DNA from: Escherichia phage vB_EcoM_G2469
Strand: one strand, 5' to 3'
Sequence record: MK327934.1
DNA: 64,000 bases
The notes under the pieces were generated by a model. The model saw nothing but the letters and a program-made list of their open reading frames with translations. It did no database searches and was not told where the DNA came from. The translations under genes were made by a program, and so were the position numbers. Below, in pieces: positions 3,155-24,926 of this stretch. Every line of letters starts with the position of its first letter. The stretch's first letter is position 1.

Positions 3155-4438
3155 ATGAGTAAAATCCAAAAATTATTGCGTGAATCTACAACGTCTACTA
3201 GCAACTCAATTGGTCGCCCAAATCTCGTTGCTTTGACTCGCGCTACGACTAAATTAATATATTCTGACATTGTAGCAACACAAAGAACTAATCAACCTGT
3301 TGCTGCTTTTTATGGTATCAAATATCTTAACCCGGATAACGAATTCACATTTAAAACTGGTGCTACTTATGCTGGCGAAGTTGGATATGTAGACCGAGAA
3401 AAAATTACTGAACTCACAGAAGAATCAAAAGTCACACTAAATAAAGGTGATTTTTTCAAATATAATAATATCGTCTATAAAGTGTTAGAAGATACACCAT
3501 TTGCAGATATTCAAGAAAGTGATCTAGAATTAGCTCTTCAGATTGCAGTCGTTCATTTAAAGGTACGGTTATTTTCAGATGCAGCGGTAACAAGCAAATT
3601 TGAAAGCTCTGATAGCGAAATTTCTGATGCAAGATTCCAGATTAATAAATGGCAAACTTCAGTCAAATCTCGCAAACTTAAAACTGGTCTCACGGTTGAA
3701 TTAGCGCAAGATTTGGAAGCGAATGGATTTGATGCCCCTAACTTCTTAGAGGATTTGCTTGCTACTGAAATGGCTGATGAAATTAATAAAGATATTCTTC
3801 AGTCTTTAATTACTGTATCGAAACGTTATAAAGTTACTGGAATTACTGACACCGGATTTATTGACTTGAGCTATGCATCCGCTCCAGAAGCAGGTCGTTC
3901 ATTATATCGAATGGTGTGTGAAATGGTATCACACATTCAAAAAGAGACAACTTATACTGCAACGTTTTGTGTAGCCTCAGCTCGTGCAGCTGCTATTCTT
4001 GCTGCTTCCGGTTGGTTAAAACATAAGCCAGAAGATGACAAGTATCTTTCACAAAATGCTTATGGATTCTTGGCAAATGGATTACCTCTTTACTGCGATA
4101 CCAACAGTCCGTTAGATTATGTTATTGTTGGTGTTGTAGAAAATATCGGCGAAAAAGAAATTGTAGGGTCCATCTTTTATGCTCCATACACTGAAGGAGT
4201 AGATTTAGATGACCCGGAACATGTTGGTGCATTTAAAGTTGTAGTTGATCCAGAAAGCTTGCAACCGTCTATCGGATTATTGGTTAGATATGCTTTATCA
4301 GCAAATCCTTACACAGTAGCAAAAGACGAAAAAGAAGCGAGAATAATTGATGGTGGGGACATGGATAAAATGGCAGGACGTTCAGACTTGTCTGTTTTAC
4401 TCGGTGTTAAATTGCCTAAAATTATTATAGATGAATAA
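3155..4438 (+). CDS. 24: capsid vertex protein gp24
   Basis: 427 aa, gp23 paralogue, T4 synteny. Confidence 0.93.
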   Translation: MSKIQKLLRESTTSTSNSIGRPNLVALTRATTKLIYSDIVATQRTNQPVAAFYGIKYLNPDNEFTFKTGATYAGEVGYVDREKITELTEESKVTLNKGDFFKYNNIVYKVLEDTPFADIQESDLELALQIAVVHLKVRLFSDAAVTSKFESSDSEISDARFQINKWQTSVKSRKLKTGLTVELAQDLEANGFDAPNFLEDLLATEMADEINKDILQSLITVSKRYKVTGITDTGFIDLSYASAPEAGRSLYRMVCEMVSHIQKETTYTATFCVASARAAAILAASGWLKHKPEDDKYLSQNAYGFLANGLPLYCDTNSPLDYVIVGVVENIGEKEIVGSIFYAPYTEGVDLDDPEHVGAFKVVVDPESLQPSIGLLVRYALSANPYTVAKDEKEARIIDGGDMDKMAGRSDLSVLLGVKLPKIIIDE

Positions 4439-4440
4439 AC

Positions 4441-4471
4441 AAAAAAAAAAGGGACCGTAAGGTCCCTTTTT
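4441..4471. terminator. bidirectional intrinsic terminator between 24 and rnlB
   Basis: A10-GGGACC-GTAA-GGTCCC-T5; A-tract and T-tract flank a GNRA-loop hairpin. Confidence 0.6.
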
Positions 4472-4473
4472 CG

Positions 4474-5472
4474 TTATGATACTAATTCAATCCATGCAGG
4501 ACGCAGAACATCTTGCACCATTCGGACTAATTCTTTCTTAACAAGATTCGGATTATCGGATGATGTTAATACAATACCTTCACGAGAAGTTTCTTCCAGA
4601 ATATCTTGAACAGTCAATCCCATCACTTTGCCAAAATCTTTTGGCGTTACAGACCCAATCTTAGAAATCACATTATTAACACGGTTTAATGTAACATAAC
4701 AAGCTAGGACATCAAGCAAGTTTTTGTCAATTTCGGTTAATGGAACCTGAGTTTTAATAGGCTTATCAGACTTTTTCTTTTCACTGAATTTAGAGTTCTT
4801 ACACTTAATAGCTACACGAGTACCGTTTGGCAGCCATTTAGGGAAACAAGGCTTCAGAACATAACCTTCTGCCGTATTATCGCCAATAACATTAGCATCA
4901 AATACACAATTATTTGCTTCTACAAGGTCTTCTGACGCAGTAGCATTATAAGCGGCTAAAACGGAATCAAGGTCATTTGGAATCATGATAAGAGAATCAA
5001 ATGTTCCACGACCAAGCATTGGTGCCATTTTAAAACCGAATTCATTACAGAAATCTTGCATTTCGTAATCGGTCAAATACGTATTATCACCACTTTCTGT
5101 ATTGATAAGGATATCGAACACATAAAAATCTTTTTCACCGTAGTCAACACCTTTCTGGATTCCACCACCAGCGAATTCACCAAAGACCTGATATGATACA
5201 GCTCGAGAACTACCCATTACTTCTTGAACGTTTTTAATAGCCTTATCATACTTCTTGAGTACAATTTCATAACCATAAAAATCTTCTGCTGGAAGAATAG
5301 GGCCTGTGCGCTTGGCGCATGTGACGTTGTCACGTTCAATTATTAACGAGAAGTTAGTCCCATGGATTTTCTCACGTGCTACCCAAACACCAGTAGTCAA
5401 ACCATTAGTGTAGAGTTTTTCAATAAACTTAGAGTTGTAGTGGTTTTCAAGACTGCTGTATTTCTTAAACAT
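4474..5472 (-). CDS. rnlB: RNA ligase 2 (Rnl2)
   Basis: 332 aa; N-terminal [12 protein letters not shown]...EKIHGTNFS with KxHGxN nucleotidyltransferase motif I; T4 position after 24. Confidence 0.9.
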
Positions 5473-18422: not shown

Positions 18423-18453
18423 AATAGTATCACACATCCATGTGTTTGTAAAC
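18423..18453 (-). promoter_or_regulatory. early-type promoter inside 3' end of alt
   Basis: AATAGTAT ... GTAAAC on plus strand (reverse complement of -35/-10). Confidence 0.4.
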
Positions 18454-20540
18454 TATCCTTGGACAAATTTAAACGGAACTGATTCTAAATCCATTAAAGA
18501 TGCTAACAATTTCAAACCTTTAGGTGCACTAGTTTTTTCTACAAATGAGGAGAACGATACCGGCTCAACTGATTCGATTTCACCCGTCATAGCAACCACC
18601 TCGCCTGTTTCCATGAGAACATCACCATCGTAAATGACAGCTTCATCTAACTGGTCTGAGGACATGACTTCAGCTTGAATAAATTTAAGGTTGGATTCTA
18701 AACCTGCACCAGTGTCAGATGACGCATCTGTAATTTTATTTATCTGCAAGAGAATGCCTCTAGGCAAAATAATTTCTTGCTCATTAGGGTGATTACTCAA
18801 CTGTCCCGGATAAATCACGTTAACTTTATGGGCGCCATCAATAGCCCATCCAACGTTAACACGGATTTGTTCTGGTGCATGCATAGCTGTTCTTACTTGA
18901 CTAGGAGAAATAGTAACACCTTCGTCATTATTGTCAATGTTAAGCTCTTTGCGAACTTCTTCAGGAGCAAGTCCAAGGGCAACGTTCTCTTTAAACCCAC
19001 CGAAAATAATAGGAGCTAGTGAAGTGGAAACATAGTTTCTGAAATAGAATACCTTATTTTTAACCATTGCTTCGTAAATAGGCATTCTGATAGACTGAGC
19101 TCTATATAACGTTAGTCCTTCAGGTAAACGGTCTCCATTTAAAAACGCCGAATCAAGACCATCAATAGCGCGTTTAACTTCATCTTCATCTGCAACATCG
19201 TAAAAATCTGGTTTATAACGACCTAACAACATATTATTGATATCGGTATACGCAGAAGAGGCATATTCACGAATAGCTCGTTTTTCAGCAACAGAGTATT
19301 GTTTAGGGTCCCGATTCATTGTTATATTAAAGGTGCCTCTAGCCGATTCTCGTGCATAAGTATACATCACATTAGACAAGAACGCTGATTTACGTTGTTT
19401 CCAAGTTTTTTCAGATACTTCAGCTAAAACATCGTCGGCCAGTTGGAAATTATCACGTCTAAAATCTTCAAACCATTCGTCTTTAATAGAGTCTGCAATT
19501 TCATTTGCAGCTTCAACAAAAGCAGCTAATGCTTTAACAGATGTTGTTTTTTCAGTTTTAATTTTCTTAGCAAACTTTTCTAAAGTTGGCTTAATAACAC
19601 TACCATAAGAAACTTCATCAGCAAATCTAAAGGATTCATCAATACGATTATAAATCTTATTTTCGATATCAGCAACTAAAGTGCCTTTTGCTGTGGATGA
19701 TGCTTGGGCCAGTACGATTTCATATGCTTCAGGAAGTAATTCGGCTGTAGCTGGGCCACTAACTTCTTTAGCAGAATTTTCGTATTTCTGGAATAACTCA
19801 CCTTCTTGTCGGTCAGCTTCTAAAGATTGACTTGCTGCAATAGCACGACGAGAAATTTTAGTACGAGCAATAACAGGCTTATCTTTACGTTTTTCTTCTA
19901 CAGCAGCAATAGAACCAGCGATAGCCGTTTCTTTGGTGACCTTTTCGCCGGTCTTTTTACTCACATAAACTTCGCCAACATCAGAATCTACTTTCGTGTA
20001 CAACTCTGTGTTAATGTTAGGGATGCCTTTAATATCTTCAATGTTGGCATTTTTACGAACCATCATCACATAGGTGTGTTTACCTGTGAATTGATACATT
20101 GCCGACAATACTTTAAAACGACCACCGGTTTTAGTAGAAACTAAACGAGCAAGAAGAGTTTGAAGCTGCTGACCACGTCCTTTCAATTTCTTGGTAGGGA
20201 ATCGGAACAGAACTGCATCCATACGAAGAGCTTTAACCTGTTCATATACTGTATTGAAAATGGTGTTGATTGCATCAATAGGAGCAGGACCAAGGCCATT
20301 TTTCAATTCAGCGAGATTACCCTTTTCAGACAGACTCATAATAACAACATGAGCGTATTTGTCGCCAAGTTTAACTTGTTTTACGGCGTCGCCTTCGGAA
20401 AGGTAAGAGAATAAACGAACTACGATGTTTGTATCGATATCACCAATTTTCCAGACTTGTGGAACTTTAGCTTTAGGGTTCAAATTGACGACAGGAAGAC
20501 TGCCTTCAGATTCAAACACTTCATTTAATTGTTCAGACAT
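18453..20540 (-). CDS. alt: Alt ADP-ribosyltransferase (virion-injected, modifies host RNA polymerase)
   Basis: 695 aa, position between 54 and 30, similarity to T4 Alt. Confidence 0.85.
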   Translation of the reverse strand: MSEQLNEVFESEGSLPVVNLNPKAKVPQVWKIGDIDTNIVVRLFSYLSEGDAVKQVKLGDKYAHVVIMSLSEKGNLAELKNGLGPAPIDAINTIFNTVYEQVKALRMDAVLFRFPTKKLKGRGQQLQTLLARLVSTKTGGRFKVLSAMYQFTGKHTYVMMVRKNANIEDIKGIPNINTELYTKVDSDVGEVYVSKKTGEKVTKETAIAGSIAAVEEKRKDKPVIARTKISRRAIAASQSLEADRQEGELFQKYENSAKEVSGPATAELLPEAYEIVLAQASSTAKGTLVADIENKIYNRIDESFRFADEVSYGSVIKPTLEKFAKKIKTEKTTSVKALAAFVEAANEIADSIKDEWFEDFRRDNFQLADDVLAEVSEKTWKQRKSAFLSNVMYTYARESARGTFNITMNRDPKQYSVAEKRAIREYASSAYTDINNMLLGRYKPDFYDVADEDEVKRAIDGLDSAFLNGDRLPEGLTLYRAQSIRMPIYEAMVKNKVFYFRNYVSTSLAPIIFGGFKENVALGLAPEEVRKELNIDNNDEGVTISPSQVRTAMHAPEQIRVNVGWAIDGAHKVNVIYPGQLSNHPNEQEIILPRGILLQINKITDASSDTGAGLESNLKFIQAEVMSSDQLDEAVIYDGDVLMETGEVVAMTGEIESVEPVSFSSFVEKTSAPKGLKLLASLMDLESVPFKFVQG

Positions 20541-20596: not shown

Positions 20597-20784
20597 TAAT
20601 CCACAATCGGGAGCAAAGTACGATAAACTTCAAAATTAGGGCCTTTTTCGTACTTATCAAAATTGTCCATAAAAATATGATAGGAATCGTTATTAGGAAA
20701 ATCTAATATAATCTGAGAGCAAGAGGTGGAAACATCTCCACCATCCTTCTTAGCTACAATAACTGTTTCTAAATAAGCTTTCAT
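20596..20784 (-). CDS. hypothetical protein (62 aa)
   Basis: ORF starting MKAYLE..., ATGA overlap with ligase stop. Confidence 0.4.
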   Translation of the reverse strand: MKAYLETVIVAKKDGGDVSTSCSQIILDFPNNDSYHIFMDNFDKYEKGPNFEVYRTLLPIVD

Positions 20785-22277
20785 TATAAACCTGTCTGGG
20801 ACCACGGTCCAAATACGTCTTCAAACGAATCCGCTTCTGTTTTATCAAAACGGAACCCTTTAATAATTGGGAGGAAAATACCCACAGTACCTTCACGGCC
20901 TTTAGAATGAACCCAACCATTACATTCACAATCAGCGATACGTCCAATTAATTTACCTTCACGAGCTTCAGCCATTAATCGTTCACGGTCTAAATCATGA
21001 CGCTCGTCTAAAGGAATAAGAACCTTTACACCGTCAACTGTTTTATGAGTTGTATCTTTAAAACCTGAACCACAATCGGTTGTAATACGACGACAACGTG
21101 ATACGAGTTCGACACCACCTAATTTGTTAGGGTCTTTAGAGTGTTCATAGTATCCTACAACTTCTAAAGCGATATCAATAACTTCTTTAAATTTAATTAG
21201 ATTCTTAGAGCGTTTGTTTTCCCAATATGAATCACGGTTTTTAAGGATAATACCTTCAAGACCTTGGTCAACATATTTTTTATAAACCACTTTAGCTTCG
21301 TCAAGATTACGAACTAACTGATTTTCAATTGGCTCAATTCGCTTAAAGCCTTCAGCCATATTTTCAAGAGCAGCAAAACGAACATCGTATTTCTGACCTT
21401 TAATTTTGCCATCAGAATAGACTTCATCTAAAGGAACATAGTCCCAGGCTTGAAGAACCATACCTTCCGCTTCTTTAGGAGAAATAGTCCCTTGAAGAGA
21501 TTTATTTGCTAAACCATTTGAAGTGCTACGGTCTGCAACTTGTACTTCTTCGGATTCTTCATTACCACCAAATAAGAACGACAGGTCATTTCCTGAGCTC
21601 ACAGCCTTTTTAATATCGAATGAATGATAAACTAATTCACCGTCGATTAAAACCCCATTAGGGTGTCTTTCACGAGCTTCTTTAGTCATTTCCATTAGTT
21701 CATCTGCTAATAGGGTAAGACCATGGTATTCATTACCAGCACGAGAAAAGAATTGAACACCATCATCGCGAACTTCAGCGAAACAACGAGCACCATCGGC
21801 TTTTAATTGAGCAAATGCAGGCCATTTAATATTTTTAGTAATCAATTTCTCATCATATGCAGATGCTAACATCTGTGGTTGCAATTGAATAAGTCCAGGC
21901 CACACCTTATTCGCGATAGACACTGAAGCACCTACTTCAAGGTCGCGCATCATTACACGACGAAGGACTTCTACATCATCAGGTTTACCGTCAGCGATAT
22001 AACCCATGAGCTCTTTAATTGCAGCATTACCAGTGAGTTTACGAGTGGCTAATGTGAACTCAATAAAATCCAACATGTCATCTAATTCAAGAAGACCATA
22101 CGCTTGAGACCTTTCACCCGGTCCTGGCCATTTCTTAATATAATACTGGATGCCACGTGCATATGTTAAACGATACACACGTTCAAGTAATTTGTTGTCC
22201 TTATTTTTCTTAAGGATTTCCTGTTTTGTTTTAGTAGAACCGATCGCAGCTATTTGGTTTAAAATATCTAAAATCAT
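20784..22277 (-). CDS. 30: ATP-dependent DNA ligase gp30
   Basis: 497 aa; N-terminus MILDILNQIAAIGSTKTKQEILKKNKDNKLLERVYRLTY and adenylation Lys motif (AQLKADGARCF) as in T4 DNA ligase. Confidence 0.93.
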   Translation of the reverse strand: MILDILNQIAAIGSTKTKQEILKKNKDNKLLERVYRLTYARGIQYYIKKWPGPGERSQAYGLLELDDMLDFIEFTLATRKLTGNAAIKELMGYIADGKPDDVEVLRRVMMRDLEVGASVSIANKVWPGLIQLQPQMLASAYDEKLITKNIKWPAFAQLKADGARCFAEVRDDGVQFFSRAGNEYHGLTLLADELMEMTKEARERHPNGVLIDGELVYHSFDIKKAVSSGNDLSFLFGGNEESEEVQVADRSTSNGLANKSLQGTISPKEAEGMVLQAWDYVPLDEVYSDGKIKGQKYDVRFAALENMAEGFKRIEPIENQLVRNLDEAKVVYKKYVDQGLEGIILKNRDSYWENKRSKNLIKFKEVIDIALEVVGYYEHSKDPNKLGGVELVSRCRRITTDCGSGFKDTTHKTVDGVKVLIPLDERHDLDRERLMAEAREGKLIGRIADCECNGWVHSKGREGTVGIFLPIIKGFRFDKTEADSFEDVFGPWSQTGL

Positions 22278-22552: not shown

Positions 22553-23368
22553 TTAACAATTTATAGACCAAGTCCATTTGGACGAATCTAAAGGAAAGTT
22601 TTGAATCGTCCACCATGGCTGCATATCGGTTGGTCCTGGAGTTCGCCAGGTATACGGATTCGACGGAGCGCCGATTTGATTAGGCCATGCGCCTGGACTT
22701 GTTGCACCAGATTCTTTAAGCAAATCCGCCAATCGTTTTAAAAGGTCTTCACGATCTGAATCTGAATTATGCTCAGGTGGAACCAAACGAGATTCAATAT
22801 CATCCCACGTGTGTACACGTTGTGCAGTACGAGGAATGGCATCACGTTCACCACGAGCCAACCAATAAATCGGTACATTAAGAATTTCTGCTGCATGGTC
22901 ACAGTGATGAGCTAAATCGTCAACGTAACAAATCACGTTATATTTTGTTTTAGCTAGTTCAAATAATTGTTCCTTTGAAGAAACATGACCACACATCATT
23001 ACTTCAGAGAAAGCGCCTGGGAACAAAGCATTCAAATTAAATTGTCTATTCAATCGAGCATCAATTGAATCACCTAGCGCCGTCACGGCTACAAAATTAT
23101 AGTCTTCTTTTAGTTTATTGATAACTCTAAGAGCATCCGAATAAGGCGCTAAGTAACGAATAAAATCAGAGCGATTATATTTTTCTATTAATTGTTTACC
23201 GAGGTTATCGTCGGTATTGAATAGTTTACCAGGAGAAATAAATTTTTCATCCTGAATCATTTTTAAAATATGTTCTAATGGAAGATTATATTTTTGGGCA
23301 AAATAAGGAAGTCCAGATTGCCAGCTTAAACATACACCATCAATATCAGTCAAAATAGTAGGCTTCAT
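22553..23368 (-). CDS. HAD-superfamily hydrolase-like protein (T4 30.2-like)
   Basis: 271 aa; N-terminal DIDGV motif I and YVDD motif IV; Trp/Pro-rich C-terminal tail. Confidence 0.6.
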   Translation of the reverse strand: MKPTILTDIDGVCLSWQSGLPYFAQKYNLPLEHILKMIQDEKFISPGKLFNTDDNLGKQLIEKYNRSDFIRYLAPYSDALRVINKLKEDYNFVAVTALGDSIDARLNRQFNLNALFPGAFSEVMMCGHVSSKEQLFELAKTKYNVICYVDDLAHHCDHAAEILNVPIYWLARGERDAIPRTAQRVHTWDDIESRLVPPEHNSDSDREDLLKRLADLLKESGATSPGAWPNQIGAPSNPYTWRTPGPTDMQPWWTIQNFPLDSSKWTWSINC

Positions 23369-23832
23369 AAAGAGTCTCTTAATAGGTTTAACACATCAAT
23401 AAATTCAGCTTCGGTTAGTATTGTATCATCTTTTGTTAGGTGGCTAGCCATGCTGTGCTTCAAAATTTTTCCTTTAGAGGCTTGTAAGGCATCACGAAAC
23501 CCCTTGTTTTGGATCGCGGCTTCAAAATATGCATTTGTGTATAATTCTTTCCACGCTTCGGAGTATCTTGAAAATGGAACTCCTAGCCAGAAGAGAGTCC
23601 CACGGTCCTGAGCTCTTGCATAAGACCTTCCAGCTTGCTGTGCAGCCAATCCAGACAACCCAAATATACGTCTTTGTTGTTCAATATTTTTCACCTTACA
23701 TCCTTGGAGAAATCCTTCAAGACCTCCGAATTGAATACCATCCATAACAAAAGGCCATTGAGCAAAGTTACTTAATGCACATGACGGCCATTTGAAATTA
23801 CTTCTTATTTCTAATTCAGACATCTTTAACAC
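23365..23832 (-). CDS. NADAR (YbiA/DUF1768)-like domain protein (T4 30.3-like)
   Basis: 155 aa; SNFAQWPF..DG....E.F.Q..K pattern resembling the NADAR signature. Confidence 0.5.
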   Translation of the reverse strand: MLKMSELEIRSNFKWPSCALSNFAQWPFVMDGIQFGGLEGFLQGCKVKNIEQQRRIFGLSGLAAQQAGRSYARAQDRGTLFWLGVPFSRYSEAWKELYTNAYFEAAIQNKGFRDALQASKGKILKHSMASHLTKDDTILTEAEFIDVLNLLRDSL

Positions 23833-24034
23833 TTATAATTTCAACATCAGCCCAATGTCCGTATCCAGGTATACGGTCTTCGATAGATAAATTTCTGTCA
23901 TTTTTAGGCATTTTAATTGACGTAACGTATGGTTCTAAACGGTTTTCCGCGTAATATGGAAAAACGTCGGTTACACGATAAGTAACTTCAATCATTTCCG
24001 TACCAAACAATTTCTGGATTAATTTATTCAACAT
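23816..24034 (-). CDS. hypothetical protein
   Basis: 72-aa ORF. Confidence 0.4.
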   Translation of the reverse strand: MLNKLIQKLFGTEMIEVTYRVTDVFPYYAENRLEPYVTSIKMPKNDRNLSIEDRIPGYGHWADVEIISVKDV

Positions 24035-24221: not shown

Positions 24222-24278
24222 ATTTTTCCACTTACTAAAGAAATCATTATACTCTAATCCGTCCTTGGATGTACACTA

Positions 24279-24557
24279 CTTAATGAAATTAATTTCTACC
24301 GGATGAACAACAGGTTGAGCAGTGATATATTGAGTAATTGCTTTCATGACTAGAGCTTCAGAACCAGGATTTTTCTCAACGAATTCACGTGCTAGGTTAT
24401 GAGCTTCGAGTTCACTCAATAAACCGGAACGCTGGCATCCACGGTCTTGAGTACCCTGTTCAGATAAAAGGACTACTACATATTTTTCATCGTCGTAGGG
24501 CTTAGCCAGTTGAGCAAATGTTCCTTTACTTCCAAAAGGAGAGTTATGTCGCCACTT
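24279..24557 (-). other. ATG-less 93-codon open frame, possible frameshifted continuation of upstream gene or non-canonical start
   Basis: stop-free frame from TGA (about 24558) to TAG (24276-24278); only internal ATG gives 23 aa; overlaps 3' end of 24544-24891 in a different frame. Confidence 0.3.
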
Positions 24558-24891
24558 TCACGCCGTGAGGAGTTTCAACCTTCGTATATTCGTGCGGTCC
24601 ATTTTTCTTAGTTTCTTGATGTGGAACTTCATAGACCTTAGGGTTAGGACATTCAATAAAATGCTCATCTAAATCGGTCGAGAATATTAAAGTAAAACAA
24701 TTACTGAATTTACCAACACCGGCCTGATAAATTTTACCTTCAGAAGTTCTAATTTCACAAACCGAGCCGGCATCAGTAACTTCTAAAACTTCAAAAGGCT
24801 CGATAAGGTCATATGAGAACATGTTTTTAAGGCGTGGAGTAATATCCCCATTTTTAAAATTCATTTTATAAAAAGTATTAACTTTAAACAT
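24544..24891 (-). CDS. hypothetical protein (115 aa)
   Basis: ORF from ATG (MFKVNTFYK...) preceded by GAGGAA RBS. Confidence 0.5.
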   Translation of the reverse strand: MFKVNTFYKMNFKNGDITPRLKNMFSYDLIEPFEVLEVTDAGSVCEIRTSEGKIYQAGVGKFSNCFTLIFSTDLDEHFIECPNPKVYEVPHQETKKNGPHEYTKVETPHGVKVAT

Positions 24892-24926
24892 AATTTCCTC
24901 AATGGGAGCCGAAGCTCCCAATTAAT

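Follow-up and report, generated by a model that had tools for sequence, protein, structure and literature searches.

Gene 30.3 of phage T4 had been flagged bioinformatically as a phage NADAR (ref. 17 of Johannesman et al., PMC11257639), and NADAR domains in T4-like phages were catalogued by Iyer et al. 2022. Using recombinants of RB69 with T2 or T4, Johannesman et al. mapped the gene (bioRxiv 2024, PMC11257639; Nat Commun 2025, 16:1598, PMC11825919), which they renamed adfN for 'anti-DarT factor NADAR' (PMC11257639, PMC11825919). Deletion of adfN from T4 or T2 makes the phage sensitive to DarTG1 by about 4 logs, RB69 is DarTG1-sensitive and is rescued by AdfN supplied in trans, purified AdfN takes ADP-ribose off DarT1-modified DNA, and DarTG2 is not countered by AdfN (PMC11257639, PMC11825919). 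T4 AdfN is impaired by E36A, by K43A, and by a C-terminal truncation like that of RB69 (PMC11257639, PMC11825919). In the published version, the truncated protein has reduced activity, and E36A and K43A lose rescue only in part (PMC11825919). The same work found no interaction between AdfN and DarT1 in a two-hybrid assay, and it found that AdfN is fully functional only during T-even infection; an experiment with T4-GT7 indicated that DNA modification is not the cause, and the authors propose an unknown T-even co-factor (PMC11825919). Every phage of the Tevenvirinae that was tested and had the gene at full length resisted DarTG1, among them Bas46 and Bas47, the closest relatives of RB69 (PMC11257639).

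In vitro, the T4 NADAR cleaves ADP-ribosyl-guanine and does not cleave ADP-ribosyl-thymine, and it gives uninfected cells no protection from DarT1 (Toxins 2024, PMC11125620). The Methods of that study describe the T4 construct as 'gp30.3; residues 1-208', compared with the 152 aa of T4 gp30.3; tag or vector residues may account for the longer numbering, as may a different annotation (PMC11125620).

Phage NADARs are one of four NADAR families, and the T4 enzyme hydrolyzes G-ADPr on both DNA and RNA (Toxins 2026, PMC12945103). C-ADPr is also cleaved by YbiA-type NADARs, and the summary table of that work credits no family but NADAR and YbiA with its hydrolysis, leaving this activity unlisted for phage NADARs (PMC12945103). 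YbiA-type enzymes carry Glu at a position on the last strand where DarG1-type enzymes carry Asp and phage gp30.3-type enzymes carry His, and this position separates the families (PMC11125620, PMC12945103). Escherichia coli YbiA (2b3w; PF08719, NADAR/DUF1768) has been linked to N-glycosidase activity on riboflavin intermediates and to a LexA-controlled operon (PMC11125620; Iyer et al. 2022). DarG1 is encoded in an operon with the DarT1 toxin, and DarG1-type enzymes have extra N-terminal elements (PMC12945103). The phage NADAR cannot stand in for DarG1 in uninfected cells (PMC11125620, PMC11825919).

Gene 30.3 in the window and its neighbors

The window is the whole stretch of DNA analyzed here, 64,000 nucleotides from Escherichia phage vB_EcoM_G2469 (MK327934.1). 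Its listing of open reading frames contains a 155-aa ORF with a GTG start at positions 23365-23832 on the minus strand. An earlier note on this DNA had given these coordinates and a NADAR-like motif within them; both are real, and the minus strand, which the note omitted, is added here. The motif peptide, LSNFAQWPFVMDGIQFGGLEGFLQGCK, spans residues 20-46 in the 155-aa reading and residues 17-43 when counted from an ATG at 23821-23823. This ATG is very probably the true start, giving a protein of 152 aa, because gene 30.4 upstream ends in a TGA that overlaps it (ATGTCTGA), because the gene is annotated from this ATG in phages moha, T4, and AV114, because the T4 adfN cloning primer (ATGTCTGAGTTAGAG) begins at the same ATG, and because T4 has GCA where the window has GTG, so that the GTG codon is not conserved. 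On these four grounds, the GTG start at 23832 was dropped in favor of the ATG at 23823. The in-frame codons GTG TTA AAG (23824..23832, minus strand) belong to the mechanical ORF call only, and AdfN is probably translated without them. We place adfN (gene 30.3) at 23365..23823 on the minus strand, with 152 codons and a TGA stop, as the gene of an intact phage-type NADAR that is predicted to be a DNA ADP-ribosyl-guanine glycohydrolase.

The 3-kb stretch around the gene has 98% DNA identity to Escherichia phages BEU50, pEB20, G53, and moha, and the moha record is assigned to Mosigvirus, the genus of RB69. Judged by this DNA identity, the window belongs to a T-even phage most closely related to Mosigvirus, and its background is RB69-like and not that of a Tequatrovirus. 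The gene order, all on the minus strand, is alt.-3, alt, alt.1, gp30, 30.1, 30.2, 30.3, 30.4 ... 30.7, 30.8, 30.9, rIII, with alt at 18453-20540, about 2.8 kb from gene 30.3, and the DNA ligase gene gp30 at 20784-22277, which is the canonical T-even order. As descriptions, then, the "early gene 30.x block" and "Alt nearby" of the earlier note were correct.

Genes 30.2 and 30.4 flank adfN on the same strand and are described here as context only. Gene 30.2 (22553..23368, minus strand), which encodes a putative HAD-like hydrolase of 271 aa, lies downstream and overlaps the end of adfN in an ATGA stop/start, and gene 30.4 (23816..24034, minus strand), which encodes 72 aa, overlaps the adfN start with its stop. 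Given the ATGA overlap of 30.3 with 30.2 together with the overlap of 30.4 with 30.3, we therefore regard genes 30.4, 30.3, and 30.2 as translationally coupled. Pfam and PHROGs searches found no ADP-ribosyltransferase or toxin domain in the gene's neighbors, and no riboflavin or NAD-salvage genes adjoin adfN within the window. The gp30.3 gene of the window is an orphan, with no adjacent darT.

The Pfam match of gp30.2 to the HAD-like family PF13419 is weak (E = 0.035, below cutoff), and the protein is a member of phrog_420 (function unknown); the moha copy of gp30.2 is longer than that of the window by 3 residues. At about 24556-24558 (minus strand), the window differs from moha by an extra base and a substitution (GTGAAAGTGG vs GTG-ATGTGG), and the rest of the sequence here is 100% identical. 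This indel divides moha_244, a hypothetical protein of 204 aa encoded between the small ORFs proximal to 30.4 and gene 30.7, into two window ORFs on the minus strand. The first, at 24544-24921, has 125 aa if read from a TTG and about 113 aa if read from its first ATG; the second, at 24276-24419, has 47 aa. The split may be natural variation, may mark a pseudogene produced by frameshift, or may come from an error in sequencing one of the two records.

Relationship of the window protein to NADAR enzymes

The direct Pfam scan assigns the window protein to PF08010 ("Phage_30_3") with E = 4.5e-69 over profile positions 1-138 of 138, and the score of 231 bits is well above the gathering cutoff of 36. 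The scan gives no direct match to PF08719 (NADAR) at E <= 1, and phmmer with the single window sequence finds no match among PDB sequences, even at E <= 10. In PHROGs, the protein belongs to phrog_652 (function unknown), whose profile has 296 positions, of which the window protein covers only 126-272.

We gathered 107 homologs and aligned the 65 that were full-length. The profile of this alignment matches E. coli YbiA (2b3w) with E = 0.006, exactly over the motif, where LSNFA..F..DG....mEGFLqslK is aligned with FSNFAAWPIKVDGKTWPTSEHYFQAQK (YbiA motif SNFA...DG...sEHYFQAQK). Pfam NADAR PF08719 is matched individually by 24 of the 65 homologs, with a best E of 1.5e-7, and some JGI homolog entries already carry the name 'YbiA (DUF1768 family)'. 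At the level of sequence, the link of the window protein to the NADAR superfamily is transitive, running through the family profile and the homologs, and not direct. The NADAR match that the earlier note expected of a Pfam scan was thus reached only indirectly: the direct scan gives PF08010 and not PF08719, whereas NADAR is reached through the profile of the family, its homologs, and the predicted fold described below. The reading that a protein with no PF08719 match is not a NADAR was dropped, since all three connect it to NADAR, and the resemblance that the note had drawn from a short motif proves to be far above chance.

The NADAR signature of the window protein (residues 17-43, LSNF...DG...EGFLQGCK) is encoded at 23695..23775 on the minus strand. 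Residues L17, S18, N19, F20, E36, G37, F38, Q40, K43, and H123 are invariant in the 65 aligned homologs, at least 90% of which also retain D28 and G29. E36 (23716-23718) and K43 (23695-23697) form an E-x6-K pair that aligns to the E...K of YbiA, and they correspond to the Glu/Lys pair in contact with ADP-ribose in PnNADAR (Johannesman et al., PMC11257639, PMC11825919). At the last-strand position that separates the NADAR families, the window protein has H123 (23455..23457, minus strand), placed there by both the alignment and the model, and this histidine is the mark of the phage (gp30.3) family.

We modeled the protein with AlphaFold2 from the alignment of 65 homologs, and the model has a mean pLDDT of 93.6 and a pTM of 0.89. 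It shows the alpha+beta architecture of NADARs, with a helical core and small beta-hairpins on the flanks; a strand at 120-123 holds H123, a helix at 138-151 forms the C-terminus, and the confidence falls to about 80 in the loop just after H123. When the model was compared with the PDB by Foldseek, the best match was YbiA (2b3w, E = 4.7e-5, TM 0.68), and the top three also included a Phytophthora NADAR with bound ADP-ribose (8bau) and the DarT-associated NADAR of Geobacter lovleyi (8bat). Matches below the top three are noise (E > 3, TM < 0.25). The nearest folds of the model are therefore those of YbiA and two other NADARs, which is the outcome the earlier note had anticipated for a structure prediction. 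The predicted fold of the window protein is NADAR without ambiguity, and as modeled the protein is a minimal NADAR of 152 aa, with the core domain only.

Although the fold is shared, the protein belongs to neither of the two cellular types. E. coli YbiA is about 20% identical to the window protein and has Glu at the third position of the catalytic center, whereas the phage protein has His, and H123 rules out membership in the YbiA type. DarG1 (the Geobacter/Trichlorobacter lovleyi NADAR, 8bat) is only 13% identical to the window protein, has Asp in its last strand where the phage protein has His, and is 219 aa in 8bat compared with the 152-aa core in the window. DarG1 also sits beside its toxin gene, whereas the window gene lies between gp30.2 and gp30.4. 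Membership in the DarG1 type is ruled out by the His in place of Asp, the 152-aa core alone, and the lack of a darT neighbor.

Comparison with T4 AdfN and the RB69 allele

The window protein is identical to T4 gp30.3 at 146 of 152 positions (96%) with no gaps, and in the alignment its frame continues to the same ...VLNLLRDSL* end as in T4. The six substitutions (window residue first, T4 residue second) are K11R, I47V, E89P, I120V, M125I, and H128G. None of them touches an invariant family position, and two of the six, at residues 125 and 128, lie in the loop directly after the catalytic H123. The window and T4 proteins have the same start, stop, E36, K43, H123, and C-terminal helix, and their genes have the same place between 30.2 and 30.4; they differ in the six substitutions and in their background, which in the window is Mosigvirus-like and not Tequatrovirus. 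The moha copy is closer still, with 151 of 152 residues identical.

Up to about nt 410, the RB69 gene is nearly identical in DNA to that of the window, and both have the same flanking genes. RB69 gp30.3 differs by an extra T at gene position 411, where CTAACTTGAAG stands against CTAAC-CGAAG in the window. In RB69 this insertion shifts the frame and the last helix is lost, whereas the window protein is full-length and retains the C-terminal alpha-helix (residues 138-152; 23368..23412, minus strand) that is needed for full activity. An RB69-like pseudogene had been suspected since the closest genomes are Mosigvirus, and it was ruled out because the T insertion at nt 411 is absent. From this comparison, the allele of the window is intact and presumably functional. 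Since the full-length Tevenvirinae alleles tested all go with DarTG1 resistance, we infer that this phage would resist DarTG1 as well.

Shortened copies of the gene appeared to occur elsewhere. A truncated allele in AV114, suspected from tblastn coverage of 1-144, was ruled out because the gene is annotated as a full-length 459 nt and the shortfall is C-terminal divergence; tblastn coverage in fFiEco06 is also only 1-144. In the T4-like records SV76, UGJNEcP4, vB_Eco_NR1, and RPN226, the gp30.3 ORF is shortened or fused and has 86-109 aa; some of these ORFs bear Pfam matches proper to neighboring genes. They suggest either more frameshifted adfN alleles like that of RB69 or assembly errors.

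Genes linked to gp30.3 in distant phages

We examined linkage by tblastn of the window gp30.1, gp30.2, gp30.4, ligase, and Alt against eight distant gp30.3 loci with 4-kb flanks, five from Straboviridae (LemonAid, RCIP0020, JSE, 44RR2.8t, and D527) and three from outside this family (phiM7, RSP15, and Marchewka). The gp30.2 gene adjoins gp30.3 in E. coli T-evens and, among the distant loci, in Acinetobacter LemonAid and Klebsiella RCIP0020 (two of the five distant Straboviridae loci) and was not found by tblastn in the JSE, Aeromonas 44RR2.8t, Vibrio D527, phiM7, RSP15, or Marchewka loci. Neither gp30.4 nor gp30.1 was found by tblastn in any of the eight. The idea of gp30.2, gp30.4, or alt as an obligatory partner has no strong case and was dropped, since linkage is kept only in some Straboviridae, and we claim no functional coupling.

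The gp30.3-family NADARs outside Straboviridae have about 32-39% identity to the window protein. In the coordinates of the extracted loci, they are found at 4007-4462 in Sinorhizobium phiM7, 3995-4513 in Ralstonia RSP15, and 4001-4471 in Brevundimonas Marchewka, and the phiM7 copy is mis-annotated as a 'putative homing endonuclease'. These homologs adjoin RNA ligase, CCA-adding enzyme, or tRNA clusters, and such RNA-repair and tRNA neighborhoods hint at an RNA-related role for the phiM7, RSP15, and Marchewka proteins.

Discussion

We conclude that the window gene is very likely adfN (T4 gene 30.3), encoding a NADAR enzyme that reverses the ADP-ribosylation of phage DNA guanines by DarT1. By analogy with the T4 protein, we infer that the window allele has G-ADPr N-glycohydrolase activity. 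The earlier note had proposed a NADAR-type N-glycosidase, reversal of DNA-base ADP-ribosylation, and an anti-defense role, and all of these hold up: the first in the profile and fold tests and the experiments on the T4 ortholog, the second in the stripping of DarT1-modified DNA by T4 AdfN, which is 96% identical, and the third in the DarTG1 sensitivity of T4 and T2 adfN deletions. As to the substrates it named, guanine or thymine, the first stands and the second does not, because the T4 enzyme cleaves ADP-ribosyl-guanine and leaves ADP-ribosyl-thymine uncleaved (PMC11125620).

During infection of a DarTG1 cell, DarT1 ADP-ribosylates guanines of the phage DNA and replication is blocked, a step that is established in the literature (PMC12945103). 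AdfN, which is probably expressed early with the 30.x block, as knowledge of T4 and Iyer et al. 2022 suggest, would then hydrolyze the N-glycosidic bond that joins ADP-ribose to guanine, as shown for the T4 ortholog. The catalytic center would include E36 and K43, shown for T4, and probably H123, to which conservation in the family points. Unmodified DNA would be restored, and replication could resume. AdfN would in this way be an 'orphan antitoxin' with the chemistry of DarG1, with no binding to DarT1, and with no cognate toxin. By targeting the product of the toxin and not the toxin itself, it would follow the logic of a type IV antitoxin, here carried by a phage.

Because rescue is lost only in part in E36A and K43A, and because DarT1 is not neutralized outside T-even infection, the picture in which the enzyme alone reverses the damage is incomplete. 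The T-even co-factor of AdfN could be a translationally coupled neighbor, with gp30.2 as the main candidate, and if this is true, gp30.2 could, for example, bring AdfN to DNA under replication or clear away the ADP-ribose that is released. We consider this improbable. The gp30.2-gp30.3 pairing is missing in several phages, and therefore any partnership is not obligatory.

It is also very unlikely that AdfN removes ADP-ribose placed by the phage's own Alt, ModA, or ModB, and so tunes a self-inflicted modification instead of countering a host defense. The alt gene lies ~2.8 kb off on the same strand as adfN, and an Alt-like gene is also found near gp30.3 in Acinetobacter phage LemonAid, but within 4-kb flanks this closeness is gone in JSE, 44RR2.8t, and D527 and in all three loci outside Straboviridae, and the proximity of adfN and alt is simply conserved T-even gene order. 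Alt modifies proteins. The NADAR activities that have been reported are directed at base-linked ADP-ribose, on guanine and, in some families, on cytosine (PMC11125620, PMC12945103). Moreover, loss of adfN gives a specific DarTG1-sensitivity phenotype, and AdfN has been shown to act catalytically on DNA modified by DarT1 (PMC11257639, PMC11825919). The tie to the phage's own Alt that the earlier note had suggested is unsupported, and the opponent shown by experiment is DarT1, a toxin of the host.

No more likely is a reading in which AdfN acts mainly on a soluble derivative of ADP-ribose or an immune signal, on a riboflavin intermediate as for YbiA, or on ADP-ribosylated RNA in RNA damage and repair, and on DNA only as a side activity. 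Although Iyer et al. 2022 suggested a primary role directed at small molecules or RNA, NADARs of all families remove G-ADPr from RNA in vitro (PMC12945103), the homologs outside Straboviridae have the RNA-related neighbors described above, and AdfN does not detoxify DarT1 in uninfected cells (PMC11125620, PMC11825919), the genetics of T4 and T2 tie adfN directly to DarTG1 resistance (PMC11257639, PMC11825919), the YbiA-type Glu of the last strand is replaced by His in the window protein, and adfN stands in the window without adjacent riboflavin or NAD-salvage genes. As an additional activity, action on small molecules or RNA may still occur.

We therefore keep to reversal of DarT1 guanine ADP-ribosylation as the very likely role of this gene. 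Its function is already known, as the protein is a near-identical ortholog of the characterized T4 protein published in 2024-2025. A homolog was found by tblastn in 1,510 phage records (Escherichia, Klebsiella, Shigella, Aeromonas, Acinetobacter, Vibrio, and others), and among the matches listed nearly all homolog records are annotated as 'hypothetical protein'. An annotation upgrade is possible across about 1,500 phage records, and this correction of 'hypothetical protein' is the main use of the finding. For the biology of the phage, the finding means that it carries an orphan enzyme of the host-antitoxin type to erase defensive ADP-ribosylation of its DNA. This RB69-like (Mosigvirus) genome has an intact, presumably functional allele and not the crippled one of RB69, which predicts resistance to DarTG1.
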